From NCBI GenBank assembly GCA_050084515.1, contig CM114271.1, positions 11,718,001 through 11,782,000 on the forward strand: a DNA stretch of 64,000 nucleotides, read 5' to 3'. The stretch's first letter is position 1; each line of letters opens with the position of its first letter. This document shows, in pieces, positions 5,801 to 45,700 of the stretch. This DNA is from Blasia pusilla. Its lineage: Eukaryota. The notes beneath the pieces were generated by a model. The model did not search any database. It was not told the origin of the DNA and was given only the letters and a program-made list of their open reading frames with translations. A program made the translations under genes and the position numbers.

Positions 5801-7467
5801 TTTGAGGGATGGAATGTCACAAAAGAGTAGCTTCCATACACCAAATTACAAAATCAATCACTATTACATGGGGTTATAATCCAAATAGATTAAAAAAATG
5901 CAAATCAAATATAGTAGGGTTTTTTTAATCTCATCTTGAAAAAGCAAGAGAGATGTCATCCATGAAAATAAAGATAGTGCACCTTAGATAGTCGACTGCA
6001 AAAAGAAAAGACTACTCTACTGAATCACCTTTCTCATACGTATCTCTGGCCAAAGCATGCTTGAGCCAAGTGCATCACCAAATGTTTCTTGTGCAGGATC
6101 GTCATCAAATTTGGCATCCACAAAGCATGTTCTGGTTCGAACACCTCGTTTAGATTAACCCTCACCGTGCCTAAGGGGATGTCTTTGGCATGGAGCTTGT
6201 CTCTTCCACCAAGACCTGATATAACTCCTGACCCAAGCACCATCCTATTCAACTTTGGCTTGGTGAGTAATACGTAATCACCAATCCGCAGCTACAAAAA
6301 TACATAGGCATTTGGTTAGTGTCAATTCAAATTCTTCCCACATGCATATGCACCATCAACCTGGAAAAAAAACTGCTATGATATACTTGTTTGAAAGACC
6401 ATCCCCATTTCGGAAGATGATGCAAAAAGTTCACAAGTCCTAGACGACCATTTGACTCTCCACAACAAGAAATATTAGTGGCGTCATATGAACCTCGAAT
6501 AGAAGAGGCCATTGTAGGCAAGAGAAATTACCTTACTTCTTTTCTTGGACGACCCGGATCTGATTTCACTTTCCTGCTCATTCAAAGCAGGAAAGTGAAA
6601 TCAGATTGTAGCCTAGACTTTAGTCTTTTGGCTGGTCATGATTTTGTTTGGCTGTCCATGCTCAGGTTTTCTGCACATTATGCACACCAAGGTCCATTGA
6701 ACGATGTACGAAGAAATGACCATTATTTTGTGGATAGGTTGAAAACTACACCAAGGAAAAATTCATTATGCCAAGGACGACATACTTACGAGTGATCCGA
6801 GTATCACCATATGCACTTTCTGTGGAACTTCTCCTTTTGTTGCTCCGTTCTGGCACTTCTACAAACAATCCAAGTATTGAGAAATGAATTGTAAAACCAG
6901 ATTCTTCACTTCAACAAGTAATTATATTATAAGACCCTGCATCTAGTGAAGCTAAACTCACTCCTTACCACCAGATTGTGTAGTTGCCATTGCTTCTTTT
7001 TGTGTGGAGATCTTCCTCTTCCTTAATTTTCCGGCTTAAGACGTTGGTATAGGTTCAACAATGACTGTAAGTTACTCAAAACAAAGAAAGTTAGTTCTGA
7101 AATACTAATGTTGGAAAGAACAAGTAGTTATAACCATTGAAAATTGGAGGCGAAAGAATGAGAATGGGCTATCGGATGTGAGTCCATGTCATCAATGACA
7201 TATCACACAAAGTAGTCCATGTCACTGATGACATTTCATTATTCCACGTCATCTAAGTGACATGTCAGTCATGGCCTCATGACTACATCCTCGAGTCATA
7301 TACCAACGTCCACCTAAGTCGACCATCCTAGTTAGCCTTGTCGCCAAACAAATATGACTTGGGTTTTGTGTCTAAAGAAGTCGTAAGTCATTGTTAGTCG
7401 TAGTATGTAAAGTATGACTCATATGAGTCATATAACCTAGTCATAAAACGAGGGATTTCTTCTAGTG
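2871..7467. mobile_element. Decayed CACTA (En/Spm) DNA transposon, right-hand part
   Basis: Terminus ...gatttcttctagtg at 7467 (CACTAGAAGAAATC on minus). Dense subterminal tagtcata/tatgact motifs at 7180-7445 and 5265-5420. Minus-strand TnpA-like C-terminal peptide at ~6035-6290. The other end is outside the window. Confidence 0.8.
6034..6292 (-). pseudogene. TnpA/Tnp1-En/Spm-like (Transposase_23/DUF8039-like) C-terminal domain remnant
   Basis: LRIGDYVLLTKPKLNRMVLGSGVISGLGGRDKLHAKDIPLGTVRVNLNEVFEPEHALWMPN, then after a frameshift DDDPAQETFGDALGSSMLWP; resembles the CACTA ORF2 C-terminal pattern. Confidence 0.65.
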
Positions 7468-9900
7468 AGACACGACAACATGAATGAAATTTTCCCGCTT
7501 CGAGGCCGAGACGTTTTCCCTTCACTCTAGTTCGAATGTGGCGCTCTTCTTGGCTGCCTAGATCTTGGACCAGCAAAGAATTATGATTGCTGCATCTTGG
7601 GAGATGAAGGTATTCGCCCAAGTCTTCTTCTTAATTTGAGATCCCTTCACGAGCATCTCATCAACCAGGTCCTCACTAAGGAATCCATTGTATTACGACA
7701 CGTGTGTTGTAAGCACCTTTTTTATTATGTTGCATTCTTGGATCCAATGGTGGGTCATGTTCCCCTCGAATAAAATCCTACACATGTGAACACAAAGTTA
7801 GACTAATGATCCCTTGCAACCCATCGATTTCCGTCTGGTTGCACCACAGAATATGAAAGAAAATATCATGTACAGAGTCAGTGCAACCCGTCGGACTCTG
7901 ATGGATTGCACCACTCTCTGCAAATTGCAAGGATGCACAACCCGTCGGACTCCAACGGGTTGCGAAAATCTCTCCGAAATGGAATCTCTTGGAGGCCCAA
8001 TGTAGTTTCTACAACCCGTTGGACTCCGACAGGTTGCACCACTGTTCGCAGATAGCAACAATGTGCAACCCGTTGGGGTCCGATGAGTAGCACATGGATG
8101 TCCATCGGCATGAAGTGATGCAAGCCTGTTGGAGTCCGACGGGTTGCTGGGAGGCCCCAAAAGCGGAAATTTTACGCTACTATTGAACCAATTTACCTAA
8201 AGAAAATATGGTTGCAACCCGTCGAACTCCGATGGGTTGCTTTTATGCCTCTAATGACTAATTAACTAGACCATTGTGCAACCTGTCGGACTTTGACGGG
8301 TTGCAAAACACATGTTTCATCCAAAACCTTACTAGAAATCTCGGTCATTTCGCAACCCGTCTGAGTCCGACGGGTTGCAGTAGCCAGGTTTCATCCAGAA
8401 ACTTGGCTACAAATTACTCATTTTATTACCCTTTGGACTCCGACGGGTTGCAGGACGATCTAGCAAAATATCATGGAAGACGTAAATTCAACCCGTCAGA
8501 CTCCGACGGGTTGCTGGACTGTATCCCAAAATGCCTATGGAAGGTCAAAAAGGCTTTGGTCTATCGACTCCTATGATTCTTGCCAATCTATATTCTGAAT
8601 ATTTCAGCAACCTGTCGGACTCCGACGGGTTGAAGCAAGCAAAAAATATTCACAGAGAAAGATCAACTTACGTATTCATCGAAGCATTGCCATCTCCACC
8701 GTTGCCATGTGATGCGAAAAGGGATGGAGGACGACTGCCCTTATGCAGAAATGCGTCTCCAATGAATTCAAGTGCTCCGCTACAAATTGTGAGCATGCCA
8801 TGAACCTGTGGTTTCTATCCCAGATAGAGAAGTAGAGGTCTCGCATCCAACTGAATTGGGTTCCTTCAATAGCTCTTTTGAACTCCTAGTCTCTGATCCT
8901 CCAGAATGTGTCCAAGGCCTCCAAGTCTTCTTCCGTCACCAAAGCCTGCGTTCCATGTTCATCATAAGGTTGAACATAGAACTAAGGGAAGCTATCGATG
9001 TAAGATGTTGTGGCAATCGACAGCTTTAGCTTTGCGATGTCCTTGTCCGACTGAATTTTGTGGACGTACTCCATGGTCTGCAGTCAACAAAGTGGAATTC
9101 TTGGGGACTTGTGACCATCCACCACTGCCATCTGCTTTACAACTTGCAAAAATATCGAGAATTTCAATAAGATGCTCTTTAATATATGTCAATTAAGAAA
9201 GTAATTAAGAATGCTCTTTCAGATATGTCGATGTCTGCTTACCCTCTCAAAAATTGGGTCAATGTCGAGGCTGGCCGGCTGCTGTGGGACAACAGGTGGC
9301 AAGTCCACTTGAAATTCATTGATACAAAAGAGGTCAATTTCTTCCACCAGGTCTTAAGGAGGACGAAGACTCTTCTCCTGCTTCTTCAAAGATGTCCACC
9401 ATCTCCACACTTACAATCCTCATCACCTCCTTGTCGGTCTCCTAAACTTCTGCGGTTTCTTCAGTAGATTTTAAGTTCATTGTGTCCCTAGACCTCATCG
9501 TAGAGACATCCTCCATCTCAATGTTGTCCATAGGATGAACAGGTCTTTCTTCCATGGCGATAGCTTTCCCCTCCACGCTTTTGCCAATTTTTCCCTCTTG
9601 ATAGATGCGTCGAGACGCTTCTTCTCTCTCTTCTTGTCCGCGACTCTTTTCTTCAAGGCCTTTGATGTCTCAGCCTATACATTTTGCCTTGAAAACTCCT
9701 CCACATCAAGCTTTGCCTCAAGCTCCTGCATGCGCATTTATGCTTCCCTCTCCCGGTCCTCTATCTCTTGTTGCCTAATTTTTTCCGCCAAGCGAGGGCC
9801 AAGAGATGGCGACGAAGGAGTCTTGATGGACTTGGGAGTGACGCTCCCAACCTTTGTTGCTTGTGTTTTCCTCATCATTATGAATGTCAAAGATCTACAC
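7468..9900 (-). pseudogene. Spliced gene for a coiled-coil + ParB/Srx-like domain protein, inactivated by C-to-T stops; 3' part cut by CACTA
   Basis: Manual minus-strand translation of ~9142-8672 in one frame: VVKQMAVVDGHKSPRIPLC*LQTMEYVHKIQSDKDIAKLKLSIATTSYIDSFP*FYVQPYDEHG...WMRDLYFSIWDRNHRFMACSQFVAEH...AVVLHP...VEMAML. WD(G>R)NHR matches the ParB/Srx DGxHR motif. Donor gtaag at ~8671, acceptor tgtgtag at ~7778. The next exon 7777-7468 reads ILFEGNMTHHWIQECNIIKKVL... apart from TAA/TAG/TGA stops. Upstream exon(s) ~9243-9880 are charged and coiled-coil-like. Confidence 0.65.
7814..8635. repeat. Palindrome array A: ~12-13 copies of TGCAACCCGTCGGANTCCGACGGGTTGCA with unique ~25-65 bp spacers
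   Basis: Copies start near 7814, 7882, 7937, 8011, 8064, 8121, 8213, 8277, 8352, 8426, 8488, (8555, degenerate), 8608. The array lies within the predicted intron of the ParB-like gene. Confidence 0.92.
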
Positions 9901-10155
9901 TTGTGCACTCCTGAAACTATACTGAAACACGATCGACTCTATCAACTCTCAAAGCGTCGTCACTTGGAGCGTCGTTACCTTCTAGCGAAGGGGCTTTGAT
10001 TAACGTCGTGTTCAAAAAACGTCGGGACCTCAACTGTTGGGAGGACTCGTCGGAGGACAAAGAGCTCCAACTGAAATCGCGGAATGAAAAAAAGAAATGC
10101 GCAAAATTTGTGCCTTATACTATTTTCGAGCCGTTGAGCTTACCATCGGGTCTTG

Positions 10156-11130
10156 GCAACCGTTGGACCGACGACGACGTCGGCCATTCCGGTGCTTTGC
10201 ATGGTTCCCCGTGCAACCCGTTGGAGTCCGACGGGTTGGACGGTTCCCTCGTAGTAGGAATACGATGCAAGGTCCCCGTGCAATCCTTCAAAGTCGGATG
10301 GCTTGCACGGTTCCCTCATCGTAGGAAGACAACGCGAGTTCCCCGTGGAACCCGTTGGACTCCGACGGGATGCAAGGAAGAAGCGACCATCATGCAACGA
10401 AACGAGACGGGTTGTACGAGCAGGGGGTATGGACCAAGAACCCCATCTACGGGTTGTCCATCTACGTATGGCCATTATTTTCGTGCAACCTGTAGAACTC
10501 GGACGGGTTGCAAGGACAAAAGTGGCCAACGGGTTGCAAGTTGTTAGATTACAAAAAGTTGTTGTCATGGCCGGGACTTCCTTCCTTCTTGCAAGAGGGT
10601 CAAGATCAGACAGTGCGGTCCCTAGGGTCGTCGAGGACGTAACGGAACCCACCTCGGCTGTCCATGTGCAACCCGTCAAACTTCGACAGATTGCACTAAG
10701 GAAATGTTCTTCACTTTCTCACCCACCATTACGAATGCTGCCACTAGTTTGAACCCCATCAGATTGCAACCTGACGAAACCCAATGGGTTGCAACCATAC
10801 GGATTCCAAAATTTTGCAACATGTCGGACTCAAATTTTTGGAGTCACATGATTTGCAAGTAGACAGATTCCAAAAATTTGCAACCAGACGGATTCCAAGG
10901 GTTTTCAACTTGTTGGACTCCAACGGGTTGCAACTTAGCGGAGTCTGACAATTTGCAAGTAGACAGATTCCAAAAATTTGCAACCAGATGGATTCCGAGG
11001 ATTTACAACCTATCAAACTCCGACGGGTTGCAACTTGTCGGAGTCCAATGATTTGCAACCATAAGGATTCCAAAAATTTGCAACTTGTCGAACTTTGACG
11101 GGTTGCAACTAGTCGGAATCTCAAAGGTTG
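10156..11130. repeat. Palindrome array B (intergenic, between the divergent genes)
   Basis: Spaced copies near 10212, 10279, 10347, 10393, 10484, 10667, then a dense head-to-tail run at 10750-11130 mixed with a gattccaaaaattt variant. Confidence 0.9.
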
Positions 11131-11311
11131 AACTAATCTCGTGAATGGCAAAACTTAGGCAATCTCGACAGTCAAAAAACTTCAATATGTTCAATCCCAA
11201 GGGTAATTTATTTATAATGGAATTTCCTTGGTCCAGACAGCGTCTAAAAATCTCACCTACCAAACAACAGCTTGTAAGACGATTTATGTCAAAAGTTTAA
11301 CGGTCACTATT

Positions 11312-11622
11312 TATTGAAGATTGAGTTACAGTCAAGCTCATGAGACATCTGAATTGTTACATTTGATACTCATACAAAGTAGGGAAGCTTAATCTTGGTT
11401 AGTCACTTAAGCGCAATTATCTTAACTAGGGTTAGTTAATCACAGTTAGTTTGCTCAAGACTATGGTTAAGGTTAGGATTAGGGTTACTTGTAGATACCC
11501 CATATAATTGTGAAGGGGACCAACCTCCACTTATTCTCTCATTGCAAATTTCGTTCTCCATGGTGGTGTGTGAGTGTGAGAGCCGTTTCCCACTAGTTAT
11601 GCTTCTTTAGTAGTTTTCCACA
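11312..11622 (+). repeat. 5' LTR of copia copy 2
   Basis: tattgaagattg...ttttccaca, directly followed by the PBS. Confidence 0.95.
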
Positions 11623-14600
11623 TGGTATCAGAGCGATAGGAGAATATCACTTGAAATTCTTGGTGTTTGAGGAGAGAAGAGAGGCAAGAGAAGGCAGAAC
11701 ATCAGTTTGGGAGAAGGAAATTTTGTTTTGAGCTCAGTGGGTGCAGATTTCAGGTGGAGCTTTGACGGTGATAAAACTTTGGAGGAGTTTTTAGGGCTTT
11801 CCCGGTCGATTTAGCCATCTGGATCCGTAGCGGCTAGAAAAATGTCAAAGGCTTTTTCAAGCCATCTTGTAGAGCTTATCGAGAGTTTTCCAGCTAGCCC
11901 AAAATTGCTCGATTGTGACATTCTGAGCTCCTGCAGTAGCAATTTTAGTGTAGGAAAGTGCAATTAGTGAATAAAAGTTGTGCAGTTTGCTTTCTACAAG
12001 CCAATTTTGACTAGTTCTTTCATACATTTGATCAATTTCGGCAAATTTCAGGTCAATTTCTGTGTAGGAGTGGTCTATGCTTCAATTGGAGTAGTAGAGA
12101 GCCTGAAATTATATTTTTTGTCAGTGAAATCGTTCGTCCTGGAGTTTTCCTCAACAGCAATCACAGGCGAGAAGTTAGATAAGAAGAATTATAATGTCTG
12201 GAAGTTTCGCATGAAATAATTTCTCATGGATCAAGAACTATGGGAGCTTGTCATAGGTGATGAGGCCAAGCATGAAGGTGACTCAACAGACTTGAATGTT
12301 CGCGCCTAGAACAAACGCGCAAGGTAAGTAATCCACTACATTTCAATAACAATCAGTTCGCCAATGATAGGTCACATTCAAGATGTTGATATTCCGAAGG
12401 AGGCGTGGGATGCATTGGAAAATCTATTCCACACATCTACAAAGTCCAGAAACCTTCAATTGAAACATGAATTGAACGAAGTGAGGAAAGGATCGTAGAG
12501 CATCAATGATTATATTTTGAGTATTAGACATATTGTTGATGAGTTGAATAGCATTGGAGTGACAATAGAAGATGATGATATGATTTTGTTTACTCTTCAA
12601 GGCCTTCCAAAGGATTACAAGTCCTTTGAGACCTCTATCTCTGTCAGAGAGAAGTATCCAACCTTTCAAGAGTTAGTCCCACTGTTAATCAGTGAAGAGA
12701 TGCGCCTACTAGGCAGCGGTAGCTCGTCTAGTCTGCAAGAGAGTGCGTTTTTGCAGGTTATGGATCAAATAGAGGCAAGGGTCGTGGCAGAAGCTTCTGT
12801 GATCTTGGTGGATATCAAGCATATGGAGGAAGAGACACTCAATATAACGTCACTCAATCAACTAGGAACCAGTACCAAACACAATCACAAGGTGGTGGTG
12901 GAAACCGTTGGGGTCGAAGTCAACAACAGAGGGTCCCTGGATCTTGCAATTACTGTGGGATAAAGGGTCACTATGAAAATTTTTGCTTCAAGAAGAAGGC
13001 AGATATGAGAATAGGAGCCTTACAACAATAAAACTATGTGGAGCAACAACACCAAGACGGGTACCAAGAAAAATAACATTTACAAACAGAGCATCTCTTG
13101 GTCATGACTCATCATATGGAGCAATGGTCAAGAAAGACTTGACAGCAGATTGGTACATTGACTCTGGTGCATCAAATCACATGACCTCACAAGCTAAATG
13201 GTTCAGTAGTTTGGAGCCGGTGAAAGATCCTGCAATTGTGCTCACAGAAGATGACACTCAACATCATATCACGCATACCGGTAAAGTTCCAATAGCATGA
13301 GATGGTCTTTGTGCTCTTGGAAATATTCTCTATATTCCTACCATTGTAAGAAACCTGATCTCTGTAGGACACATAGTAGAACACGCTTATCAAGTGGAGT
13401 TTAACGCAAATGGTTGTTTTATTGAAATAATGGATGACCAAACTACGATAGCCAAAGGAGCTAGATCTGGCAGAATATTCAAATTATATGTTTCTATGCC
13501 AGAGATTCAAACAGCAATGTATGGTCAAACCGGCCAACAAGTCATAGATCTAAATGTGTGACATAAGATAATTGGACATATAAATCTTTAAAGATTACAG
13601 AGTCTTTCATCATCTAATATAGTAATAGGACTTCCTAAATTAGCGAGTCCTGCTACGTTAGAGGTATGTCTTGCTTGCCAATTTGGAAAACAAGCTAGAT
13701 TTCCTTTTCCAAAGCAAGGTAGAAGAGCATCCAGGATATTGGAGTTGATCCATAGTAAATAGCATCGCAATCTAGCCTTAGTGATTGCGAGTACTTTATT
13801 TCAATTTGTTCATGACTTCCCTAGGTATATATGGGTATAATTTTTGAAAGCCAAGTTAGAGGTATTCTCAGTGTTCCAAACATTCAGAGTCCTAGTAGAG
13901 AAGCAGACTCGACAACACATTATGAAATTGTGTTGTGATGGAGGAGGAGAGTATCTTTCAACACAGTTTGATAACTATTTACGTTAGAATGGCATCCAAC
14001 GTCAAGTTACTTGCCGTTATACTCCACAAAAAAATGGAGGGGATGAGAGGAAGGATCGATGTATTGTTGAAACAACACGAGCTATGTTGAATGAGAAGAA
14101 GATGCCTAAGGTGTATTGGACAGAGGCTTTAGCATGTGCACTCTTCTTAATCAACCAAACTCTAATAGTAGGAGTTCATGATAAAACTCCATTCGAAGTC
14201 TTCACCGGAAGTAAACATGATTTCTCCTTCTTCAAAGTATTTGACTGTATTTGTTATGCTTATGTTCCTTCTAAGCGATGTCAGAAAGTAGACCCCAAGT
14301 TTGAAAGATGTATCTTCATTAGCTATGCTGATGGAACTAAGGGGTATAAGTGCTACATTCCATCCTCTAGGCAGCTTATTATTAGTCGCGATATTATCTT
14401 TGATGAGCTAAAGTCATGGTATGCTCCATCTGAGCCTATTCCACCTCTAAACTTTTCTATCGAGAGGGAGAATATGATTGTAAACCAACAGACATTGTCT
14501 TCAACTTCCCCAAGTACTAGTATAGGACTAGGAGAGGTCCTAGATTCATCGGTTAAATCTATGAGTCCATGGAGGTGAAGAGTACGTATTCAATTTGTTG

Positions 14601-15628
14601 ACACAAGTTAGAGCTTGAATCAAGTGTTAGAGGCATCTACCTGTGAACAATAACTTTGTAGATCAAATCGAGTTACACATCCAATTCATAGATTCATAAA
14701 TGAAGGTTTCCTTGTGACACATCATGCATATATGATGACCACCTTTCAAGAACAGGAGCCAAGTTATTTTGAAGAAGGTGCAAGTAAAGTCAAATGGATT
14801 AAAGTTATGGAGGAAGAGCTTGCTACATTAAGATATCAATAAACATGGGAGCTGGTTGATATACCTTCCGGTAAGGAAGCTATTGGTTGCAAATGGGTTT
14901 CCAAAATCTAGCGCAATCCAGATGTTACAATTAATATATACAAAACAAGATTGGTGGCTAAGGGCTATGCATAACAATATGACATCGATTATGAGGAAAC
15001 ATTTAGCCCTATTGCAAAGATGGCGACTACGAGAATAGTGGTTATAATTGCAGTAAGTAAGAATTGGAGATTATATCACATGGACGTCAAGAATGCCTTC
15101 TTGAATGGAGATCTACACGAGGAGGTATATATGACTCAACCACCTAGATATAACCATCCCAAGTTTCCATTTCGCGTATGCATGATGAAGAAAGCTCTAT
15201 ATGGGCTCAAACAAGATCCAAGAGCTTGATATGGCAAATATACGTTGGGCTTCAAAGAAGCAACCTACAGTTGCTTTATCTTCAACAGAGGTTGAGTACA
15301 GAGGAGCAACCAATGCAGCATGTGAGGCGGTGTGACTTCATCGATTACTTGTTGAGATTGGTGTTAGTAACTTAGGACCTAGTGTAATATATGCAAAAAA
15401 AATATTAGTAGCATCAAGCTTGCTAATAACCTTGTGTTTCATGCTCATACAAAGCATGTTGAGATCCACTATCATTTTATTAGAGAGAAAGTGCTTGCAG
15501 GAGAAATTGATCTTACGTATATAGATACAGATCAGCAAATTGGTGACATCTTAGCATTGTCGAGTTAAGTTTGAGATGTTTAGAAATGATTTAGGCGTTA
15601 GAGATATGGATATGAGCTTGAGGGGGAG

Positions 15629-15940
15629 TATTGAAGATTGAGTTACAGTCAAGCTCATGAGACACCTGAACTGCTACATTTGATACTCACATAAAGTAGG
15701 GAAGCTTAATCTTGGTTAGTCAGTTCAACGGGATTATCTTAACTAGGGTTAGTTAATCACATTTAGTCTAACTCAAGACTATGGTTAAGGTTAGGGTTAG
15801 GGTTGCTTGTACATACCCTATATAATTGAGAAAGGGACCAGCCTCCACTTATTCTCTTATTGCAAATTTCGTTCTCCATGGTGGAGTGTGAGTGTGAGAG
15901 CCGTTTACCACCAGTTATGCTTCTTTAGCAGTTTTCCACA
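15629..15940 (+). repeat. 3' LTR of copia copy 2
   Basis: Preceded by PPT gagggggag; followed by TSD ctatt. Confidence 0.95.
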
Positions 15941-15999
15941 CTATTCACTATAAATTTAAAATTCTCATTATCATTCTTACTTTTATTCTTATTCACCTA

Positions 16000-18900
16000 A
16001 TGGTGGAATCATCATTGTTGTCATCTGCAAATGGATAATTATGTGAAACTCACATGTGGCAGTCATCTAGCGGCCCTTCCTCAATCAGAAATAATTCGAC
16101 CGCAAGCTCTTGATTCTTGTGTATAAGTGGATGAAAATTTCCTCTCACTCCGATTTCTTCTCCAAATTGGAACAATTTGGTTTCCACGGATGTAAGGATG
16201 CAAACGAAGGACGTTGTAGATGAGACAGTCTAGCCAGGGATTGGAGACTCCAAAGTATGGAATCTCCTACCTTACACAAATGGACAATACATAGTGTATG
16301 GCTTGCCTTTGAAGCCTTATGTTTCTCAAGTCGAGAGTCTACAATTTCCTAGTGCACCGAGCTCCACGTTTGCCACTCCTACCTTTGGAGATCCAACATC
16401 GAGTCCAACTTCACCCGTTCGTGATAATGTTGTACTTCTTGAAGAGATTCCGAATGTCGTCGACCTCACGGGATCTGTTAGACATCAAACGGACCCTGCC
16501 TCTGCCTACTAGTGCATAAACTTGCGGTTGCAAGTTTTGAGCAATAGTTTGTTGTCATCTCTGCCCTTAAAAATGTTCAACCACATTCTTGTTGACGAGC
16601 TTCCGCCCACATATGATGGAATTTGCCTTTTTGAGTTGCCTCTACTTGCTGGTCTTGCTCAGAAGAAAGATGGAGGATGCTTGAAGGGTATGGACATAAA
16701 GTCTGACTGTCCTCGATGGTACAGGCTACAACGGACAAGTGCTTCAATTCCATATGGTCCTTCAATGGTTTCTCGTCGCCAATGCGTTGGAGCCCTCGAG
16801 TGTAGAACTCATGGCTGCCCGTTTCTAAAGCGCAATGGGGAATCAATGCATCGCAATTCCCCCCAAAGAATGCAAAAACTACATATGAGGTAGGTACGAC
16901 TATACCGCCAAGAGGCAATCGATGTCCTTATTGTGAGACCTCCCCTTTCTGCATTGGAGCGTGTCCAACATACATTTATTTCATTATGCAAGACTACAAT
17001 TCTACATCCGAGTACATCAGGCTAACAGTTCATGTTGGGTCCCAAACTCATCTTGTTACCGGTACAATTCAGAGACACATCAAGGAGGATGTGGCAAAGA
17101 AAGTGGCTGAGGTATATAGAAATTCTTCGGGATCAAAGCCTGGAGTGATCAAATTGACAAAAGCATCACAAATTTGTGAAGAATTGCTTGGAATCCCTGG
17201 CTTGGACGAGATCACAACTGCTAAGGAGAAATAATTATGGGAAAATCTAGCATTTCTCACTAATCATGAATGCTTTAGGAACTTGTTGCATCAAATACGA
17301 GTACATGATGGAAAGACGATCGAAATGGATGCCATCGTGAGGATCTAGGCTAACTCCAAAATTCCATTTATTCAGATATGGTAGTTCATGAGCCAGGAAG
17401 GCGAAGGATCTAGACCTTATGCCTTCAAAATATCTACGACATGATAGTCTAGTGGCCTCGATCTTATTGATAGAATGAGGGAAGGAGAAGATCTTTATGG
17501 CATTTGGATAAGCTTTGATATTTGCTACAGAGTGTTGAATGGATGGTTGACCATGGATGCGCATGTTTATGACCATGTGGAGAAGGGACTCAAAACCATT
17601 TTTGTGTATGAGGTAAAAGCTGAAGACATTAGAAGTCGGTTTTTTACGGCTTGCAAGGTGCATTTGCCTGCAATCCGTCGCATTTTGATAGGTTGCATCA
17701 ATCTGCAAGTCGTCGGATCTCGTTGGCTTGCAAGTTCCAAGTGTGCAAGTTTACTCACTCTACAACCCCTCGGATTCCGACAGGTTGCATCAGTCTACAA
17801 TCCGTCGGATCCCGACGGATTGCAAGTTCCAAGTGTGCTAGTTTACTCAGTTTGCAACCCATCAGATTCCCATAGGTTGCAAGTTTTTCCCTATCGACAC
17901 TTCTTGCAACCTGTCAGAATTTGATGGGTTCAAAGTCTGAAATTTGGTGAAAAAAATTCTCCCAACCCGTAGGACTATGACGACTTGCACAAAGAAATTA
18001 TAAGGAAAACTTTCCCCCTACTGGCAACCGGTCGGATTTGGTCCGGTTCCAAAAAGAGGTTCCTTTGTGATGTAAGTCGTTGGAATCCGACAGATTGCAC
18101 ATGGATTCTACAAGGCGGACTAGTCTCCTACTTGCAACTCGTCCGATTCCGACGGGTTGTAGTAGGAGGTTCCTGGGTGTCGCAACCCGTCGGAAAGCGA
18201 CGGGTTGCAGATAGAAATTCCTGGGATGCCTCCGACTTGCAACCCATCGGGTTTTGACATGTTGCAATTTTCTTTGCTTAGAGATCTTTTTCCATTCCCT
18301 TATCACATTTTTGTCTCAAGGATTGAACCTTCACGAAAATGCCCTCTGCCCCAACACAAGTGGAGCCAAGAGTGTTCATTCCACTTGGAGGTCAATCCAA
18401 GCATGCCAAAAAATTTCACTCATGGAGGCATGCCAACAAGACCAAGCAAGGGCAATGCTGCAATCCAAACATCCCATATCTTCCTCACAAAAGGCGTAAC
18501 CAAAGAAAAGGGTCCTTTGATTTACGAGCTCTATGTTAGGGCCGCCGTGAGATCTGGTGATGAGATTTTGTATGTGGAAGCCTTCAATCGGTCCATAGTC
18601 GAAACTCCTCTCGAGCAAGATGTCCACATTGGTGGAGACATTCATGGGCGTGTTTCAAGACGTCCCATATAGATGGTGGTAGACGAGTGTGAGCGAGACT
18701 CTTGGAGACCAGGTAAGTATCTTGACTTCATGCAAGTTAAGCACCAACATCGAGGAACAAACCTGGTGATTGATTTGGATGATGAAATTAACCTGGCAAG
18801 GTATTCAGAGACACCGGATTGCTCATAAATTCGAGTAGAAGTAACTTATCCAAAATCACTGAATATTTTATTTCAAAATCCCTCTGTTGCTGGAACTTCC

Positions 18901-19682
18901 TAACATACGGTACTTTCCTGAATAAGAACTGTACAAGGACAAGACGACCATTTCCTGGCTTTTGGGGGCTGAAAAACTTTGATCATTTTACCAGGACCAG
19001 GGATCAATTGAAGTACTTCTTCTACGGAAATGAATCATGCCCTTCCTGAAAGTCTTATCCGGCTCCCATTAGAGCTCCAGGGAATACCCTCATGATTTGG
19101 CCCATTGCTGCAGGTACCAATTGAACTCATGAGGAAGTAGAAAATCTTACAAGTGCCGGATTCATACTCGTAGACGGAGGGAGTTTGGAACAGGTTAGCA
19201 TTACAGAGACTTTCTCATTTTGGATCCAACCTCAGATTGACGTCAATATTTATCCGGAGAAGGTGGATGATCTCAATCCACTATTTCTATTCGAGTCAAG
19301 AAATGGGGTGAAGAGAAATAGAATGTGTAGGCCAACAACATAGAGAGCAAAGCAAATCGCATTAGCTCGGGAGGCAAACATGGAAATCATCGCTACAAAA
19401 GACGTTCATAGTGGCAATGGAATAGGAAGGATGTATTGGGTGAGGAACAACACTATGAATTCAAGTGTCACATAGGTGTTTATGGTACACATATGTTGCT
19501 TTCCCACATGTTCCTGTGATGACTTTGTCCAAAGAGAGAAAACTGGGAAAAGGTATTTCCCTTACAAGCATATGTACTATGTGTTGCTTGTAGTTTTAAG
19601 AGAGTCAGAGGTAGGAGTAGGAATCCACCAACCAATTTTGTCCCTTAAAGAAGTGCGTAGTATCCTAAACAAACCACTTTGA
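16000..19682 (+). pseudogene. MULE-type transposase remnant: Cys/His (WRKY/GCM1-like) DNA-binding region, partial DDE core, C-terminal SWIM finger
   Basis: SRRQCVGALECRTHGCPFL...CPYCETSPFCIGACP...RLTVHVGSQTH (16770-17050). WISFDICYRVLNGWLTMDAHVYD, a likely first catalytic Asp strand (~17500). PNTSGAKSVHSTW (TNxxES-like, ~18350). PTCSCDDFVQREKTGKRYFPYKHMYYVL, a SWIM CxC...CxH with one Cys mutated (19476-19682). Many stops and frameshifts. Confidence 0.7.
17668..18268. repeat. Palindrome array C (~12 copies) inside a predicted intron of the transposase
   Basis: Coding sequence ends at ...ACK|gtgcat (~17657) and resumes at ~18320; between them are repeated gcaacccgtcggaNtccgacgggttgc variants. 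Confidence 0.88.
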
Positions 19683-19788
19683 GGATGCAACATGAGGTCT
19701 TAGATTATACTTTGAAGTGCCAGAATGTTCACTTTGAGGATGCAACATGAGGTCTTAGATTGTACTTAAAAATGCCAGAATGTTCACT
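19676..19788 (+). repeat. 55-bp tandem duplication over the transposase stop codon
   Basis: cactttgaggatgcaacatgaggtcttagatt...gccagaatgtt occurs twice head-to-tail. Confidence 0.9.
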
Positions 19789-20152
19789 ATGAGCTTGAAC
19801 TCTAATCAGCTAAGGAAAAATGATGAATCTTTTTCAGACCTTGGATGGAAAAAGTAATTTGTTCCAAATTTGTGATTCCAATGATTTTTTAGTTTTTTTT
19901 AAAATTTTGTGCAAGTTGCAACCCATAGGATTTAGACGGGTTTCCAGAATGTGGAAGAGGAAAAACCAATTTATGGGAGTGTTTAAGCACAGAGAACAAA
20001 ATTGAAAAAATATTCACAAAAAAATCTTCCTCTCTTCAATCCAACGGAAACTATTTTCAAATCACAAGAAACTCTCTTCCAAAAAAAATATCCCTTTGGG
20101 TTGAAGGTAGTTTTCTCTCTCCTCTCTTCCTCTCTTCCTCTTACCGCGCCTC

Positions 20153-20412
20153 CAGGTCAAGAGGCAAGGAGATGTCCCACGAGCATAGGTTACCGTGGAG
20201 AGGGCTTGGGAGAGGGAAGGGTGTACACCTCCAAGAGAGAGAGCTTGAGAGCTCATTCTCTCTTTGTTCAACCTCTTGGCATGAAGCGACGGAGCTATGG
20301 TCATCCTTGCCTTGTGTGTGTAACCCAAGCCTATCATAAGGAGAGTGGGTTTGGTTTGACATGAGAGAGAGTGCACACCATGGAGAGCTTGGTGTGAGAT
20401 TTGATCGATTTT
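20153..20412 (+). repeat. Fragment of a long LTR-like dispersed repeat (family also at 30766-32038 minus and 41514-42700 plus)
   Basis: aggtcaagag...gagagctcattctctctttgttcaacctc...gtaacccaagcc...ggagagtgggtttggtttg is shared by all three loci. Confidence 0.85.
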
Positions 20413-20414
20413 AT

Positions 20415-20692
20415 TGGAGATATTTTGGTACTTCTCGTTGTTTGGATGCCATGAGTTAGCATGGGATCATGTGTGTATGTTCGGTAACACCGATGTATGT
20501 TGTGTAGCAATGTGTATGCGTACGACAACTTGCTCCTGATACAATATTGGTGGCGAGGCATGCAGACTGACATCCAGAAGTTTGTCATGCGCATACATAT
20601 GGCTACATAACATACATTGTTGTCACCGAACATACACACACACATACTCATGGCATCCAAACAACAAGATGAGAAGTACCAAAATATCTTCA
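20415..20692. repeat. Two short (~110 bp) gypsy LTR copies in inverted orientation
   Basis: tggagatattttggt...gtacgaca (20415-20527) and its reverse complement (20583-20692); same family as 42740-42867 and 42927-43042. Confidence 0.8.
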
Positions 20693-21430
20693 ATCGCCCT
20701 CTAGTTGATGGTTAGGTCCCTCTAACTATAGATAGCCATCTATCCCTACCTACTATGACATACATCTCTCAGACGCAAAGAGCAAAAATATCAGGTGCTC
20801 ATGTCGCCCCATCGTTAGTTTCCTTCCTTTCATCCATATCATAGACACAAGTCAGAATCTAACTACCTACTCTATCTACATCTGGAGCATATCCATCATC
20901 CCTGATTGAGGAACCCTAGTGAGAGTGACGTTAGATATGCCATATGCCACCCTATCAAACATCCATCACATACTAGCATAGTGGCTACACCACAGGTCGA
21001 ACCATACAACATACATTTGCAACCCTATAGGAACTACTGCTAAGCTTGGATCAACTCTAGCGTCAATATTAGGAAGGTGAGATGGCGCACAATTACGCAG
21101 AGTTGGTCCTTCCAAATCATCCCATTGTGTCCCTCCAATAAGGGAACACCAGATGGCAAAATCTCACGCACCCTTAAGATAGTGCGCCCTCCAATCACAT
21201 CCAACGTTGTGGGTGCCGTCTGTTGCAAGTAGACATATTCTCTATGATGAAACCTCTAGATAGTAGGGCGATAACCACCTCCCCAAATATTCGCATACCT
21301 CGACGTAAATTAGCAAGTATGGTGAGAAAAATGCTGAGGATGCCTGCCTGCTGAATCTGTATCCTATCACCAACCACGACAACTGGAGGTCCCAATCACC
21401 TAGGTAACCTCTGTGCAAGCCATACTAGAT
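20583..21430 (-). mobile_element. Tcn1-like Ty3/gypsy 3' remnant (integrase C-terminus, PHD finger, PPT, LTR)
   Basis: QQTAPTTLDVIGGRTILRVREILPSGVPLLEG is homologous to 49262-49735 and 43215-43616; decayed PHD at ~20870-21020. Confidence 0.85.
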
Positions 21431-30765: not shown

Positions 30766-32038
30766 CGTGACAGCCCCCTTCTCACAGATTCACAAAATGG
30801 ATGTTTCCCCACAAATTCCTCCTAGGATTGAGGGTCAACATCCCCAGAAATATTTTTCACTCACTTTCTTACTTCCAAGTGGCTCTTTACTTGTCCTATC
30901 CACGAAAATAAAATATCTTTACTTCTCTGCCCCTCACTCAAGGAGTTACTAAAGAACTTGGAAATTTCACTCACACCTTCGAACGGTGGCCATGGCAGCC
31001 ACACAAGAATTGTCGTAACTTCTTAATAAAACAATTAAATCACACACCGTTTCTTTAGCAGCGTACAAAACTTTCTAATCTACGACCTTGTCAAATTGGT
31101 GTCTCCATTTTATTTTCCACCAAAAAATGACAGGGATTGTCGTGCAGCCCAACGTCTCTTTCTCCTACGCAAAATTTGGCAGCGCTTCCGCCCTGATTTG
31201 TCCCCAAAAAAATGTAAAACCTATGAAAATACAAATTAGCAAGCTACATGGTGCTTCTGAGAGCACCAGCATGGAGCAACTCGCCCCCATACTCAATCCC
31301 TGTCAAAAATTGGGCAGCGCTTCCGCGTGCCACTCTCCTGTACAAAAATCAGCAATGCAAAACAACGAACTGCATGAATTCTACCCCCGTGAGCACTACC
31401 ATGAGCCATGAAGCGGGGAACACGGTCCCCAACCTGCACCAAACAGCAAGCACCTGCGAGGTCCCCCATGAAGATCTCTCACTAACTCATTCTCTCTTTG
31501 TAAAATACGATCCAATCTCTCTCAACACCATAGCTCTCAAATGTGTGCACTCTCACATGTCTCTCTCAATGTCAAACCAAACCCACTCTCCTAATGAGAG
31601 GCTTGGGTTACACTCACAAGGCAAGGGACCATACCTCCGCCGCCTCATGCCAAGAGGTTCAACAAAGAGAGAACGAGCTCTCAAGCTTTCTCTCCTTGAG
31701 GTATACCCCCTTCCCTCTCCCAAGCCCTCTCAAACGGTAACATATGCTCACAAGTCACCTCCTTGGCTCTTGACCTGCTGTAACGGTCAAGGGCCACTTC
31801 CCAAAGTGTAAATTTAACTCTACCAAACATGGAAATTTACCCAAAATAGTAAGTTTCTCTATATGAGGAAGTTGTGTACGTTGATCCAAATGAACCGAAA
31901 CGAAGGGAAAACTTGCTCTCTCAGGTTTCCCGGGACCTCAGCTGATCATCCTCGACCTCTTGAGCATGTCCTCCTCTACTCGCAAAGGCCCTCTACTAGA
32001 TCTCTTTGATCTATCCTAAAAAGTCATGACATGTCACA
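30766..32038 (-). repeat. Long (~1.27 kb) LTR-like repeat
   Basis: Ends (c)gtgacagccccc...tgtcaca; homologous along most of its length to 41514-42470 in opposite orientation; no matching TSD seen. Confidence 0.7.
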
Positions 32039-41513: not shown

Positions 41514-42700
41514 TGTAACGTCATGTAGGATATATCGGCAAGATCTAATAGAGCGCCTTCAAGGATACTAGAGGAAAACCTCAAGAGGTCAAGGATAACA
41601 AGATGAGGCCACATATAACTTGAGGGATCAAGTTTTCCCTTTGTTTCGACTCATTTGGAGCCATATAAAGATAATTCTATTTTAAGTAAGTTATTGCTTT
41701 GAGTATAGTTGACTTTCTACTTTAGGAAGTGGCCTTTGTCTTGTAGGAGGTCAAGAGCCCACGAGGTGACCTACGAGCATAAGTTACCAAGGAGACAGCT
41801 TAGGAGAGGGAAGGGGTTATACCCAAAGAGAAAGAGTTTGGGAGCTCATTCTCTCTTTGTTGAACCTCCTAGCATGAGACAGCGGAGCTATGGTCCTCTT
41901 TGCCTTGTATGTGTAACCCAAACTTCTCATTAGGAGAGTGTGTTTGGTTTGGAGAGAGAGAGAGAGAGAGAGAGATTTTTGTGCACCATGGGGAGACTTT
42001 GTTGTGAGAGTGTCACTTAATTTATAAAGAGAAAATGAGATTGAGAGCTCTACATTGAGGGAGCTTATTGGTGTCTTTCTGTGTTTGCAGGTTAGGGACT
42101 CTATTCCCCCTTAATGGCTTATGGTAGTGCTCATGGGAGCAAGAGTCGTCCATTTTAGTGTGTTCCTTTGCATTTTTTCATACATAAGAGTGGAGTGCAA
42201 AAGCGTTGCCCAATTTTTGGTAGGAATTAAGTATGGGGGCGGATTGCTCCATGTTGGTGCTCTCGAGAGCATCATGTAGCTTATTGGTTTGTGTTTTTAT
42301 AGGTTTTAAAATTCGTGTGGGAGGAATCAGCGCAAAAGCGTTGCTAAAATTTATGTAGGAGTGGAGGCCTTGGCCTGCCAATATTTTATGAAAGGTCAAA
42401 TAAAGAAACTAATTGACAATGTTGTAGATCAGGAAGTTTTGCACGTTGTTAAAGAAGTGGTCCACAATTTTGACATCTGAGCACAAAGTTGTGATCATTT
42501 CTATGGTCTTCCATAGCCAACTTAATTGTGAAAGGAAGGAGCAATTTTGAAATTTTTTGGTAAAATCCATAATTAAGTGGTTGAAAAAAGTTTAAAATAG
42601 TTTCATCCTAGTGCATAGGACAAGAGGAAAAAAATGATTTGAGGGTAAAGTCAAGTGGAAACTTTATTAAGTAGGTATTAACCCAAGATTTATGGGGCTT
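41514..42700 (+). repeat. Long LTR-like repeat, second near-full copy
   Basis: Begins tgtaacgtcatg; aligns by eye with the reverse complement of 32038-31000; right end approximate. Confidence 0.7.
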
Positions 42701-42739
42701 AGTGTGGTATAAGCCAAGTGTGAGATCATTTTAGTGAGT

Positions 42740-45700
42740 TGTCGTATGCATACTTATCGCTACACAATATACATCATTGTCACCAAATGCACGAAAGAAC
42801 ACACACATGATCCCATTCTAACTCATGGCATCCAAACATCGAGACGATAAGCACCAAAATATCTCCAATGTATCTCTGAAGGCGCGCTATTAGATTTCGT
42901 CGATCTATCCTACCAGACATGCCAGATGTCGTGCTCATACTCATCGCTACAAAACATACATCGTTGTCACCAAATGCTCACACACTCTTATGCTAACTCA
43001 TGGCATCCAAACATCAAGACGATAAGTGCCAAAATATCTCCAATCGCCTCCCTAGTTGGTGGTTAGTGCCTCTAGCTCCAAATAGCCATCTATCCCTATC
43101 TACCATGACATACATCTCTAGGACGCTATAAGCAAAAAGGTCATGTATTCATGTGGCCCCATCGTTAGCTGCCTTCATTTCATCCATGTCATAGATACAA
43201 GTCGGAAGCCATAACTACCTACTATATGTACATCTCGGGCACATCCATCGTCCCCGAGGAACCCTAGTGAGAGTTGGTGTTAGACATGCCACATACCATC
43301 CTCTGAAACATCCATCACATACTACCATAGTGGTTGCACCACGGGCGGAACCACGCAACATACATCGCAAGTCTGTTGGAACTATTGCTAAGCTTGGATC
43401 AACTATACCGTCAATTCTAGAAAAGTGACATGGCATGTAGTTACGCATATGGTCCTTCCAACACATACCATCATATCCCTCCAATAAGAGAACATCATAA
43501 ACCAAAACATCTCGCACTCTCAAGATAGTGCACCCTGTAGTCACATCCAACGTCATGGATATCATTTGTTGCAAGTAGACAATCTCCCTGATGAAACCTC
43601 CGGATAGTCGGTCCAAAACATACTACCTCCCCGAATAGTCGCATACCTTAAAGTATCCCAACGTTATGCAATCACCGAGTTCTCAAACTCCATGGGTATT
43701 ACTCCTTGAAACAACTCAACCCTCTAAGCATATGCTCTCATCTATACATCTGGGTCATCAAGGTTCAACACCTCACCAGCATCTTGACAAATGATTGCAG
43801 GTAAATCCGGCTCTCGGAAATAAAGCAAGGAGTATGGTGAGAAAGACGCTAAGGATGTCTTCTTGCTGAAATTGTATCCCATCTCCAATCACGGAAATTG
43901 GAGGTCCCAATATCCTATGTGAACTCTATGCAAGCCATACTTATGTAAACCTCTCTTCACCATCTGAATAACCCTCTCCGCTAGTCCATCTAGCTTATGA
44001 TGATCCCGCGAAGTGGTACGGTGGTCAATTAGCGCCTAATCACATAAGGTATGAAACTCTCCGAGAAACTTCGTATCCTGATCTGTCAACACCTCAACTA
44101 CTGCGCCATCATGACTTAACACTCGATCTAGGAAGGCATATGCTACTCCCTCACTTGCTTTGTCAAAAAGTGCAACCAACTCTATCCACTTTGAGAAGTG
44201 CTCGACCATCAGCAACACATAACGACTGTGATGTTCTGTCATGAGTAAAGGTCCTGCAAAATCCAAACTCCATCTATAACCTAAATCCATGATTGGACGT
44301 GGATGCAACTATGGAGTCACAGTATTGAACCATGCCTAGATCCGATCACACACCATACACCTAACAAAAAACTTTTGAACGTTAGTTTGCATGCCTTACT
44401 ACTTATACTATATGTCTAGCAAGTTGTATGTCTGCTTCACTCCAAAGTGACCTAACTCCTCGTAGGCATGCTACACCAAACGTGCTATGTGCAAAGGATA
44501 AGGCAATACACATACTCTACCATCCTCCAAATCTTGCAACACATGCATCCCCTCCCACCAAAACCATCTGGCTCGAAGTAGGATCTGATTCCGCTCTCTA
44601 ACACCCAATCGAAATCAGAAGGATGATCAATCAAAACTCAGGTTCCGGTTTGAGAGATGGGAGTCCCTACCTAAACAAGGGCTTTCGGAACTCTAATTCC
44701 TCAATCAAATTTTCGGCCTCTTTCCTTACTACCTCACCATCAGAACTCTAGATCTAGTTCTCAAAATGAGAAGGAGGATATGCTTGTGACGCTGCCAATA
44801 CGCAAGTACTCCAAGACTGCTCCATCCTCGTGAATATCTTGAACACTTTTTGCCTCCCGATTGACCTTTGGATCTAAGGACTCTCTGTCATACCTTGTCG
44901 TTGAAGTCTCGACACTCATGCTCTCCATAGCCAATAAGCCTAAATATATTGAAGCATGCCATCCAAGCACTAACTCCTCGTCACTCTCTCCATGCCAACA
45001 AGCTTTGATCGCATCTTGTTGACTCGAGCATGAGTTACGACTCAACCCATCTACATCTTGGTTGAGCATCCCAAGTTGATGTACCATCTGGAAATCATAC
45101 TCTTGCAACAAGAGAGCCCACCTCGTAAGCTTCCTTGAAAGCTTGTTGGACTCCATAAACCACTTAAGTGGTTGATGATCACTAATAATGGTAAAGGGTT
45201 TGGCGAATAAGTAACGTCTAAAATGCACGACACGCCAAATTGCATCCAAGCACTCACCCTCTGCAGCGTTGTTTGAGCGACTAACATAAGCCACCATAAA
45301 CTCTCTACCCTCATTGTCATGTTGAGTGAGCACCGCTCCAATCCCCAACATACTTTAATCTGTATGCAAATGGAAAGGATGCCCCTTAATAGGTCTCCTC
45401 AATATGGGCGCAAACGTCAATCAATTTGTCCTTAAGCAACTGAAATGCTCTCATCCCCTCAGTGCCATTTGTTATCCACCTTGGTTAGCAAGGTTAGTGG
45501 CTTTGCAATCAAACTGAAATCCTTGATGTAGTGTCGATAGAAGTTCGCTAGTCCCATGTATGCACAAACTCAACTCACATCCTTAGGGCATGGAATGCGT
45601 GAGATGGCCTCTACCTTTGTTTGCTAAACACCAAGACTAGCTAGATATATCGTGTGACCCAAGTACTCAATGTGATTGTAGAAGAACTTGCACTTGCTTG

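Follow-up and report, generated by a model that had tools for sequence, protein, structure and literature searches.

A degenerate Mutator-like transposon with a ParB-like accessory gene and palindrome arrays in Blasia pusilla

Background

The closest described systems are algal transposons with a ParB-like accessory gene. In the red alga Bostrychia moritziana, giant Plavaka transposons of the EnSpm/CACTA type possess the accessory gene PAG3, which encodes an N-terminal ParB-like domain and is adjoined by tandem inverted-repeat arrays, and it is proposed in the available part of the preprint that the PAG3 protein binds and modifies its own element (bioRxiv 10.1101/2025.02.11.637652). In Ectocarpus, the transposon Sola1-1_Ec32 carries, on the strand opposite to its transposase, an accessory gene of about 1100 amino acids (aa) that combines a ParB-like domain with a DNA methyltransferase of the N4C/N6A type, and binding and epigenetic modification of its own transposon are suggested in the consulted sections of that paper (PMC12477816). 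Here we describe a related arrangement in Blasia pusilla, found in a 64,000-nucleotide (nt) stretch of DNA (assembly GCA_050084515.1, contig CM114271.1) that is called the window below. The region 7468-20152 of the window holds the inactive remains of a large Mutator-like DNA transposon, truncated and interrupted by a copia insertion; a ParB-like gene and three arrays of one palindrome accompany its transposase.

Insofar as the preprint describes them, the PAG3 elements share with the Blasia region a ParB-like accessory gene that lies inside a DNA transposon and adjoins inverted-repeat arrays; they are giant, and most of their copies are degenerate. In contrast to the Blasia region, the PAG3 domain is fused to a 2-oxoglutarate (2OG)-dependent oxygenase and occurs in Plavaka (also Zisupton and other) elements of red algae, whereas here the transposase is IS256/Mutator-like, the long relatives of the accessory gene have a putative DNA-methylase-like domain and the nearest named relatives are from a liverwort, the two being compared by description only. 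Sola1-1_Ec32, as presented in the text consulted, resembles the Blasia region in having the ParB-like gene opposite in strand to the transposase and in the combination of a ParB-like domain with a methyltransferase, the latter being sub-threshold here and seen only in relatives from Riccia. It differs in its brown algal host and its Sola1 transposase, and palindrome arrays are not mentioned in the text consulted. The original prediction for this locus, made from the sequence, had considered such a module to be new; very similar ones are in print from a red and a brown alga, as the available texts make clear (bioRxiv 10.1101/2025.02.11.637652; PMC12477816), and the module is a known algal-type idea, here of land-plant type and borne by a Mutator-like element. 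The literature searched, a non-exhaustive set of main texts, contained no description of such a module from land plants.

Two other studies touch on the subject. A survey of the ParB-CTPase fold presents sulfiredoxin (Srx) as the main eukaryotic member, and its main text does not contain the words 'plant' or 'transpos' (PMC12704722). In the part consulted, Iyer et al. (BioEssays 2016; PMC4738411) describe Dam-type methylases from certain chlorophytes and chytrids that have an N-terminal ParB-type helix-turn-helix and trace back to ParB-linked loci of phages. As in those proteins, a eukaryotic ParB-derived part would be joined here to a methyltransferase (of the adenine type in theirs), but their ParB part is the helix-turn-helix according to the same text, whereas here it is N-terminal and Srx-like, and the putative methylase matches PF01555.

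Bacteria, plasmids and phages use ParB-type proteins as switches in DNA segregation. In bacterial ParB the N-terminal domain binds nucleoside triphosphate (NTP) and does not read the parS site, which is read by the helix-turn-helix. With ParB/parS and the KorB and Noc clamps the Blasia element has in common the N-domain fold, a G-x-x-R-type motif (DGNHR) and clustered palindromes near the gene; unlike them, it is a eukaryotic transposon with a dyad of 29 bp rather than 16 bp, and its ParB-like domain gives no Pfam ParBc match and has a helical insert of about 50 residues. A further comparison is with VANC of the Arabidopsis VANDAL elements, which are Mutator-like: VANC is an anti-silencing accessory protein with short motifs repeated in the non-coding parts of its own element, and motif and protein diverge between subfamilies. 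The analogy is one of logic only; we know of no relation between VANC and ParB in sequence or fold, and of no VANC motifs that are long dyads.

With the window and its relatives, the module proposed in algae now reaches liverwort-related genomes and a Mutator-like transposase. A comparative line of evidence beyond the available algal texts comes with them, as many paralogous lineages keep the layout of gene and array, each with its own palindrome. The window copy itself is dead and truncated, and bryophytes with genetic tools could make the idea testable.

Results and discussion

The ParB-like accessory gene

The accessory gene lies on the minus strand. Its exon for the ParB/Srx-fold domain (8679..9146) is a pseudogene with three in-frame stops within the domain, and the read-through frame 8679-9200 shows the motifs quoted in the original prediction, including DRNHR at the place where the family has DGNHR. 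A family profile from a 15-sequence alignment (A3) matches the window at 8682-9146 (E = 5.5e-38). A HMMER search of 1.84 billion representatives gave 68 relatives at E ≤ 1e-3 (best E = 1.4e-16, 33% identity), and of 20 representatives whose records were consulted, the liverwort Riccia sorocarpa contributes 11 (all hypothetical proteins) and amphioxus one, and eight are unnamed. The family motif reads IPLCRL...VR...GY...FYV...WD..W...FE...VWDGNHRL.AW...H..V...AMH..N, in which DGNHR is invariant (15/15 sequences of the tighter alignment) and would be the equivalent of GERR of ParB. Neither single ORFs (open reading frames) nor read-through frames of the region gave a Pfam match, for the ParB-like gene as for the plus-strand gene. 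Searches against PDB sequences produced only chance matches with the broken ORF (phmmer) and one chance match, nothing relevant, with the family profile. Weak Pfam matches among 59 family members are to DUF1015 (three), DndB (one) and DUF6551 (one), all of which we take to belong to the same clan as ParBc; the ParB-like family is without a Pfam model of its own. Separately, the protein P0036 of the amphioxus Branchiostoma lanceolatum (3875 aa) has 12 repeated stretches that match the first third of the ParB-like domain (E = 2e-7), and it also gives odd Pfam matches, e.g. to Mu B C-terminal.

The gene appears to have several exons. GTAAGT is found at 8666-8671, just beyond the stop of the ParB exon, and many predicted relatives end where GTAAGT follows this exon, their common end suggesting an exon boundary. 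A second exon on the minus strand (7525..7797; two stops) is the counterpart of the segment after the ParB domain in long relatives: it matches residues 294-387 of the Riccia protein P0019 (1191 aa; tblastn E = 0.002), and window 7561-7692 matches 885-1016 of the related metagenome locus L001 (E = 4e-4), where this part is the segment after the ParB exon. The gene extends to about 7480-7525, near the left edge of the originally proposed region. Exon 2 (7525-7797) has no Pfam match, as is true of the whole segment after the ParB domain (exon 2 and beyond), and with the exception of exon 2 (E = 0.002) the window lacks the C-terminal parts of the long Riccia proteins and the locus exons represented by profiles c5, c2, c8 and c4. 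Putative upstream exons and the 5' region of the gene may lie at 9147..10140 (minus strand), in charged, low-complexity frames for which no homology was found.

A predicted ParB/Srx fold

For the fold we used the relative P0002 in place of the broken window copy, with 59 aligned sequences. The AlphaFold model has a mean pLDDT (predicted local distance difference test) of 81.7, and blocks within residues 71-220 reach 83-98. In the Foldseek search, each of the 27 rows listed down to rank 45 is Srx, ParB, Noc, KorB, SbnI, PadC or pNOB8 ParB (best E = 0.047, probability 0.97-0.98), and VIA-align gives Z = 7.9-7.5 over 92-99 residues for the KorB, ParB and Noc N-domains. When 48,161 representative chains were searched independently of Foldseek, only 13 reached Z ≥ 2, all ParB/Srx-type: eight are so by title (KorB, PadC, two sulfiredoxins, pNOB8 ParB-N, SerK, SbnI and Spo0J), and the remaining five (Atu1540, BrxU, SspE, the Dnd-system protein 9jfl and Osa) are presumably of the same type. 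The P0002 model matches ParB/Srx-type chains only, as the original prediction had anticipated, and at the level of predicted structure we regard a ParB/Srx fold as established for the family of this ORF. The domain also carries an inserted helical segment of about 50 residues. According to the model, the matched part is the nucleotide-binding N-domain and not the DNA-reading domain.

The transposase

The second gene is on the plus strand, divergent from the first. Its N-terminal two thirds (16525..17636), with stops and a frame change, comprise a GCM/WRKY-type zinc-finger region and the first part of an RNase-H-like domain. A profile of 44 members matches 16525-16860 (E = 1.4e-16; profile 194-304) and 16872-17636 (E = 5.3e-38; profile 311-562), tblastn of the window transposase to the locus L050 gives E = 2.4e-11, and an Atlas lead points from the window transposase to GCM (0.95). 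The window gave no match to profile positions 563-714, which make up the second half of the catalytic domain and include the second invariant aspartate and a C..H pair. One of the palindrome arrays (array C, below) starts 33 bp past the end of the transposase match, and the two halves of the catalytic domain are adjacent in the relatives L028 and L044; array C therefore stands at the place of coding sequence. The stretch 18166-18669, once a candidate for the region of the second catalytic aspartate, was dropped as the family profile found no match there. D535, D601, C630 and H633 are invariant in the 44 sequences, and the third catalytic residue was not located. Further downstream, a C-terminal transposase region on the plus strand (19089..19670) matches 2413-1895 of L028 (tblastn E = 3.7e-4) and contains a SWIM-like CxC...xH motif with the third cysteine replaced, which was seen by eye only and has the counterpart PCKH in L028; Pfam and hidden Markov model searches of the window frames gave no SWIM match. 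From the zinc-finger/DDE/SWIM transposase of the original prediction, the plus-strand gene is thus retained by its profile match, the SWIM part is a motif recognized by eye plus a weak tblastn match, and the second half of the catalytic domain is missing.

An intact relative, P0076, was reached through a related metagenome locus and led to 180 proteins at E ≤ 1e-3. Among the 120 transposase relatives listed, none has a precomputed Pfam domain or an organism name, and a few are called 'hypothetical protein'. Pfam recognized no transposase family in 25 longer relatives (E ≤ 1) and none in P0076 or six read-through frames of the window (E ≤ 10), a word-based search with the zinc-finger ORF found no homologues, and the transposase profile gave one chance match among PDB sequences. 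The transposase family is without a Pfam model, MULE and Transposase_mut included. Because neither protein family has a Pfam model, standard annotation misses both.

A structural model of the relative P0107 (pLDDT 77.7) was informative about the affiliation of the transposase. All four Foldseek matches with E ≤ 0.001 are ISCth4 chains (E = 1.7e-4, probability 1.0), and the GCM DNA-binding domain 1odh is matched at E = 2.2e-3 (Z = 5.8 over 129 residues). For ISCth4, Z reaches 10.6 (221 residues), 9.8 and 8.5; integrase cores give 7.0 and Hermes 6.5. Eukaryotic Mutator elements have IS256 as their bacterial relative, and they typically contain GCM/WRKY and SWIM fingers. The model thus supports a Mutator-like transposase, as first proposed, because ISCth4/IS256 is the best structural match and the finger is of the GCM type. 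The likeness to IS256 (ISCth4) and the Mutator-like elements (MULEs) covers the catalytic domain and may extend to the N-terminal GCM/WRKY-type finger and the SWIM-like tail; unlike MULEs, the family gives no match to Pfam MULE or Transposase_mut in 26 relatives or the window frames. To our knowledge CACTA, Plavaka and KDZ transposases have no solved structure, so that a fold search has no hold on those superfamilies. The family model starts with a ubiquitin-like (Ubl) fold at residues 1-83 (Z 5-6 to the Ubl domains of USP7 and TBCB). Most gene predictions of the family (P0076-P0275 set) stop at …FWHF.YRQWGGFM, and this common stop point suggests a conserved intron.

The palindrome arrays

The palindrome of the region is the dyad TGCAACCCGTCGGAnTCCGACGGGTTGCA, with the consensus TGCAACCCGTCGGACTCCGACGGGTTGCA. 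A loose scan (up to 9 mismatches at 28 specified positions) found 42 sites in the 64-kb window, of which 41 are within 7815-19945, forming three arrays and a lone copy; the sole control at this threshold is the one site in the ~51 kb outside the region. With 3 mismatches at most, the 27-nt core matched 18 times over the two strands, at 11 distinct sites, and 0 times in each of 100 shuffles, which were done at this strict threshold only. The approximately 40 copies of a 29-bp dyad that had been noted before are confirmed by these counts.

Array A (7815..8634) has 12 copies at 54-119 bp spacing between the two ParB-like exons, and it is most likely intronic in the ParB-like gene, since the exon 2 match (7525-7797) lies beyond it. 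Array B (10212..11132) is situated between the divergent genes and has 16 copies, the last ten at steps of 25-50 bp and mostly with shared ends. Array C (17669..18266) consists of 12 copies and occupies the position of the second catalytic half in relatives, and the lone copy (19917..19945) has 6 mismatches. Many of the departures from the dyad consensus (117 of 202) are C>T or G>A, a bias that would fit an old, cytosine-methylated copy.

Some other dyads were observed in the window. One at 59267-59295 has the same GCAACCCGT arms with a different centre; it is alone, ~39 kb away, amid sequence with no apparent relation to the element. Immediately to the left of the region are ATGTCATCAATGACAT (~7186), ATGTCACTGATGACAT (~7219) and the perfect 20-bp palindrome TATGACTCATATGAGTCATA (7413-7432), and these dyads at 7186-7432 may belong to a neighbouring element.

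Recurrence in related loci

A scan of metagenome contigs with the ParB-like alignment confirmed 146 of 251 candidate stretches, which gave 80 loci in 48 non-redundant groups; the loci come from few related metagenome samples and represent paralogous lineages. The transposase profile matches 10 of the 80 loci (8 non-redundant groups). In all 10 the match and the ParB-like gene are on opposite strands, and in 9 the match is upstream of that gene; all transposase copies inspected in the loci contain stops. The ParB-like domains of the 8 groups are each only 28-38% identical to one reference member. The co-occurrence of ParB-like gene, transposase and palindrome arrays seen in the window hence recurs in related loci, and in the same divergent orientation.

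The dyad of the window is absent from all 80 loci, and the sites therefore differ between lineages. For instance, L003 has 14 copies of the 24-nt dyad TGAGGTGCCGGTAAAGGCACCTCA, L019, L023, L027, L050 and L067 have arrays of TTCAACTTTCGACACCAAAAGTTGAAG-like dyads that flank the gene on both sides, L008 has three copies of AGCATTCGGCGCCGAATGCT, and further dyad families are present in L028, L032, L038, L047 and L080. Under a fixed rule, 14 of 33 non-redundant loci possess at least 3 related dyads no more than 3.5 kb from the gene, and dyad density is 0.49 per kb near the gene vs 0.21 per kb far from it. The downstream array of the loci lies between exons collinear with the long Riccia proteins. 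The related loci keep the layout while each lineage has its own palindrome, and the same layout with lineage-specific palindromes is the signature that would be expected of a co-evolving pair of protein and site.

A possible methyltransferase-like part in long relatives

The liverwort (Riccia) relatives are ~900-1200 aa long. Near the C-terminus, PF01555 (N6_N4_Mtase) matches 3 of the 6 Riccia proteins scanned (E = 9e-6 to 5e-5; 23.7-26.2 bits at a cut-off of 26.7), the three forming one 90% cluster, and in P0073 (1207 aa) this match and the ParB-like domain are in one protein. Atlas leads to methyltransferases are weak (0.79-0.81). The downstream exons of the metagenome loci are collinear with the long Riccia proteins; Pfam found nothing in the downstream ORFs of the loci, and phmmer of P0019 against the PDB found only chance matches. 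One conserved downstream exon (ORF cluster c4) reads VDLVIVDVPSNLL...GAILLFHADD in the loci (L009, L013-L015, L023, L027, L038, L039, L041, L043, L050, L061, L067, L070 and L080), and the collinear part of Riccia P0019, about 940-1011, reads VDCLFLDMPSGL. The c4 exon is reminiscent of amino-methyltransferase motif IV (DPPY), except that another residue takes the place of the aromatic one; some lineages may therefore have a changed or inactive methylase-like domain.

State and ends of the element

Both genes of the window, the minus-strand ParB-like exon and the divergent plus-strand transposase-like gene, are broken by stops, and the copy is inactive, as had been assumed. The original prediction also treated 7468-20152 as one unit once the nested copia is removed. 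The dyads, the copia with its target site duplication (TSD) CTATT and the two genes agree with this, whereas 7468 and 20152 are not confirmed as termini, and the shared termini that were expected (terminal inverted repeat and TSD) were not found: there is no terminal inverted repeat between 6500-8000 and 19600-20400.

On the right, a truncated copy of an unrelated repeat adjoins the region at 20152..20153, which is a breakpoint rather than a demonstrated terminus. Other copies of the repeat that begins at 20153 run ~220 bp further. Because this copy is truncated and the missing ~220 bp are also absent at the left side of the region, the region is a fragment of a larger element. On the left, 7468 cuts through the ParB-like gene, the relatives of which are ~900-1200 aa long. 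The two ends have the appearance of truncations, and homology common to the related loci exceeds 12-15 kb. Contigs from three sequencing runs of one organism, which covered the stretch in small shares (0.19, 0.07 and 0.05), show all its parts, the ParB-like gene included, as multi-copy at 80-95% likeness; they have no common start or end point and no single piece across the whole stretch, and no terminus could be read from them. The runs listed for the stretch are all of DNA, none of RNA. The anatomy and the family assignments, taken together, are held with high confidence.

Possible mechanism and alternative explanations

The region as a whole seems best explained, at a little short of an even chance in our judgement, as a Mutator-like transposon whose ParB-like accessory protein is recruited to its own palindromes; the recruitment mechanism itself we put forward more tentatively. 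The palindrome arrays would be cis sites that recruit the accessory protein of the same element, and its ParB-type NTP-binding domain would serve as a switch or clamp acting in cis on the DNA or chromatin of the element. The long forms would probably act through their methyltransferase-like domain, marking the element or protecting it from silencing, and protein and palindrome might co-evolve by analogy with VANC of the VANDAL elements. That the protein binds the palindromes, or spreads from them as suggested earlier, is conjecture; we infer the mechanism here much as the algal literature does. A stronger version, which we consider unlikely, is a true ParB/parS-type system in eukaryotic transposons, in which an NTP-gated clamp would load at lineage-specific arrays, spread and deliver N6-adenine/N4-cytosine methylation in cis, giving a co-evolving private address code against silencing.

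Several points weigh against recruitment to the palindromes. The conserved domain is, in the predicted structure, of the N-terminal NTP-binding type, which in bacteria does not read parS, and its fold scores are middling: Z stays below 8, and no match in Foldseek reaches E ≤ 0.001. Pfam ParBc (PF02195) matches 0 of the 59 family members at E ≤ 10. The PF01555 matches fall short of the Pfam threshold and are limited to the end of the model, none was obtained for P0019, P0018 or P0038, and the methyltransferase-like domain is absent from the truncated window copy. Array C is inside the transposase gene, away from the ParB-like gene. Of the 16 locus groups whose upstream flank measures 5 kb or more, only 6 gave a transposase match, 19 of 33 loci have no dyad family near the gene under the fixed rule, and the enrichment of dyads near the gene is only 2.3-fold, the loose family rule also yielding small families in unrelated window sequence. 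Finally, the 80 loci are paralogous lineages and not independent species.

The palindromes could instead belong to the transposase, which would read them with its GCM/WRKY-type finger like the subterminal arrays of CACTA and hAT elements, the ParB-like gene being an unrelated passenger or regulator. The family does have a GCM-like DNA-binding domain, array B is situated between the two genes with array C inside the transposase gene, and transposase and arrays are found together in the window, L003, L028 and L038. However, arrays on both sides of the ParB-like gene or within its intron are also seen in loci that gave no transposase match (L019, L027, L032, L080, L008 and L047), the red-algal arrays adjoin the ParB-like gene despite a different transposase superfamily, according to the available text, and the arrays here are internal; on balance we think that this explanation is improbable, to about the same degree as the true ParB/parS-type system. 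We give somewhat less credit again to an origin of the arrays by selfish or neutral tandem expansion of a unit prone to form hairpins, or by insertion of short non-autonomous derivatives, with no protein partner and a position that merely reflects inherited history. Such an origin would account for array C replacing part of the transposase coding region, for the 25-bp tandem structure of array B, for the related dyad alone at 59267 outside the element and for the 19 of 33 loci that have no array. It is difficult to reconcile with different dyads at the same place relative to the gene in different lineages, which is hard to explain without selection on a pair of protein and site, and with a dyad symmetry kept in most copies despite the heavy C>T/G>A decay (117/202 changes).

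Other explanations concern the accessory gene itself. Its ParB/Srx-fold domain might be an enzyme, like sulfiredoxin, the serine kinases SerK/SbnI or the ParB-type nucleases, for instance nicking extruded palindromes or acting on a protein, and not a DNA-loading switch. Srx, SerK, SbnI and Osa are indeed among the fold matches besides ParB, the invariance of DGNHR is as for an active site, and the part of ParB found here is the N-terminal Srx-like domain. The top Z matches, however, are the CTP-binding N-domains of KorB, ParB and Noc, and the apparent fusion to a DNA-methylase-like part in long relatives points to DNA as the target, so an enzymatic role in this sense appears to us quite improbable. 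Least credible, and by some distance, is a captured host gene fragment of the Pack-MULE style without a role in the element. Mutator-like elements often capture host fragments, and the window copy is a pseudogene. Yet place and orientation beside the same transposase family are kept in 8 groups whose domains are 28-38% identical to one reference, all parts are multi-copy at 80-95% likeness in the sequencing-run contigs, and 11 of the 20 family representatives looked up are separate Riccia proteins.

Neighbouring and nested sequences

Left of the region, an 85-aa open frame at 6034-6291 (minus strand) looks like part of a protein of another transposon; it has no Pfam match and may be a CACTA-associated domain. 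The repeat family to the right of the region has copies at 20153-20698, 31501-31777 and 41526-43048, the first being truncated relative to the other two. The element that splits the region, and which is not part of the module, is a nested Ty1/copia long terminal repeat (LTR) retrotransposon on the plus strand (11312..15940). Its LTRs (11312-11622 and 15629-15940) are flanked by CTATT at 11307-11311 and 15941-15945, in agreement with the insertion and TSD first described, and it has a tRNA-Met-type primer-binding site after the 5' LTR as well as Pfam matches to Retrotran_gag_2 (E = 1.2e-11) and RVT_2 (E = 1.2e-23).

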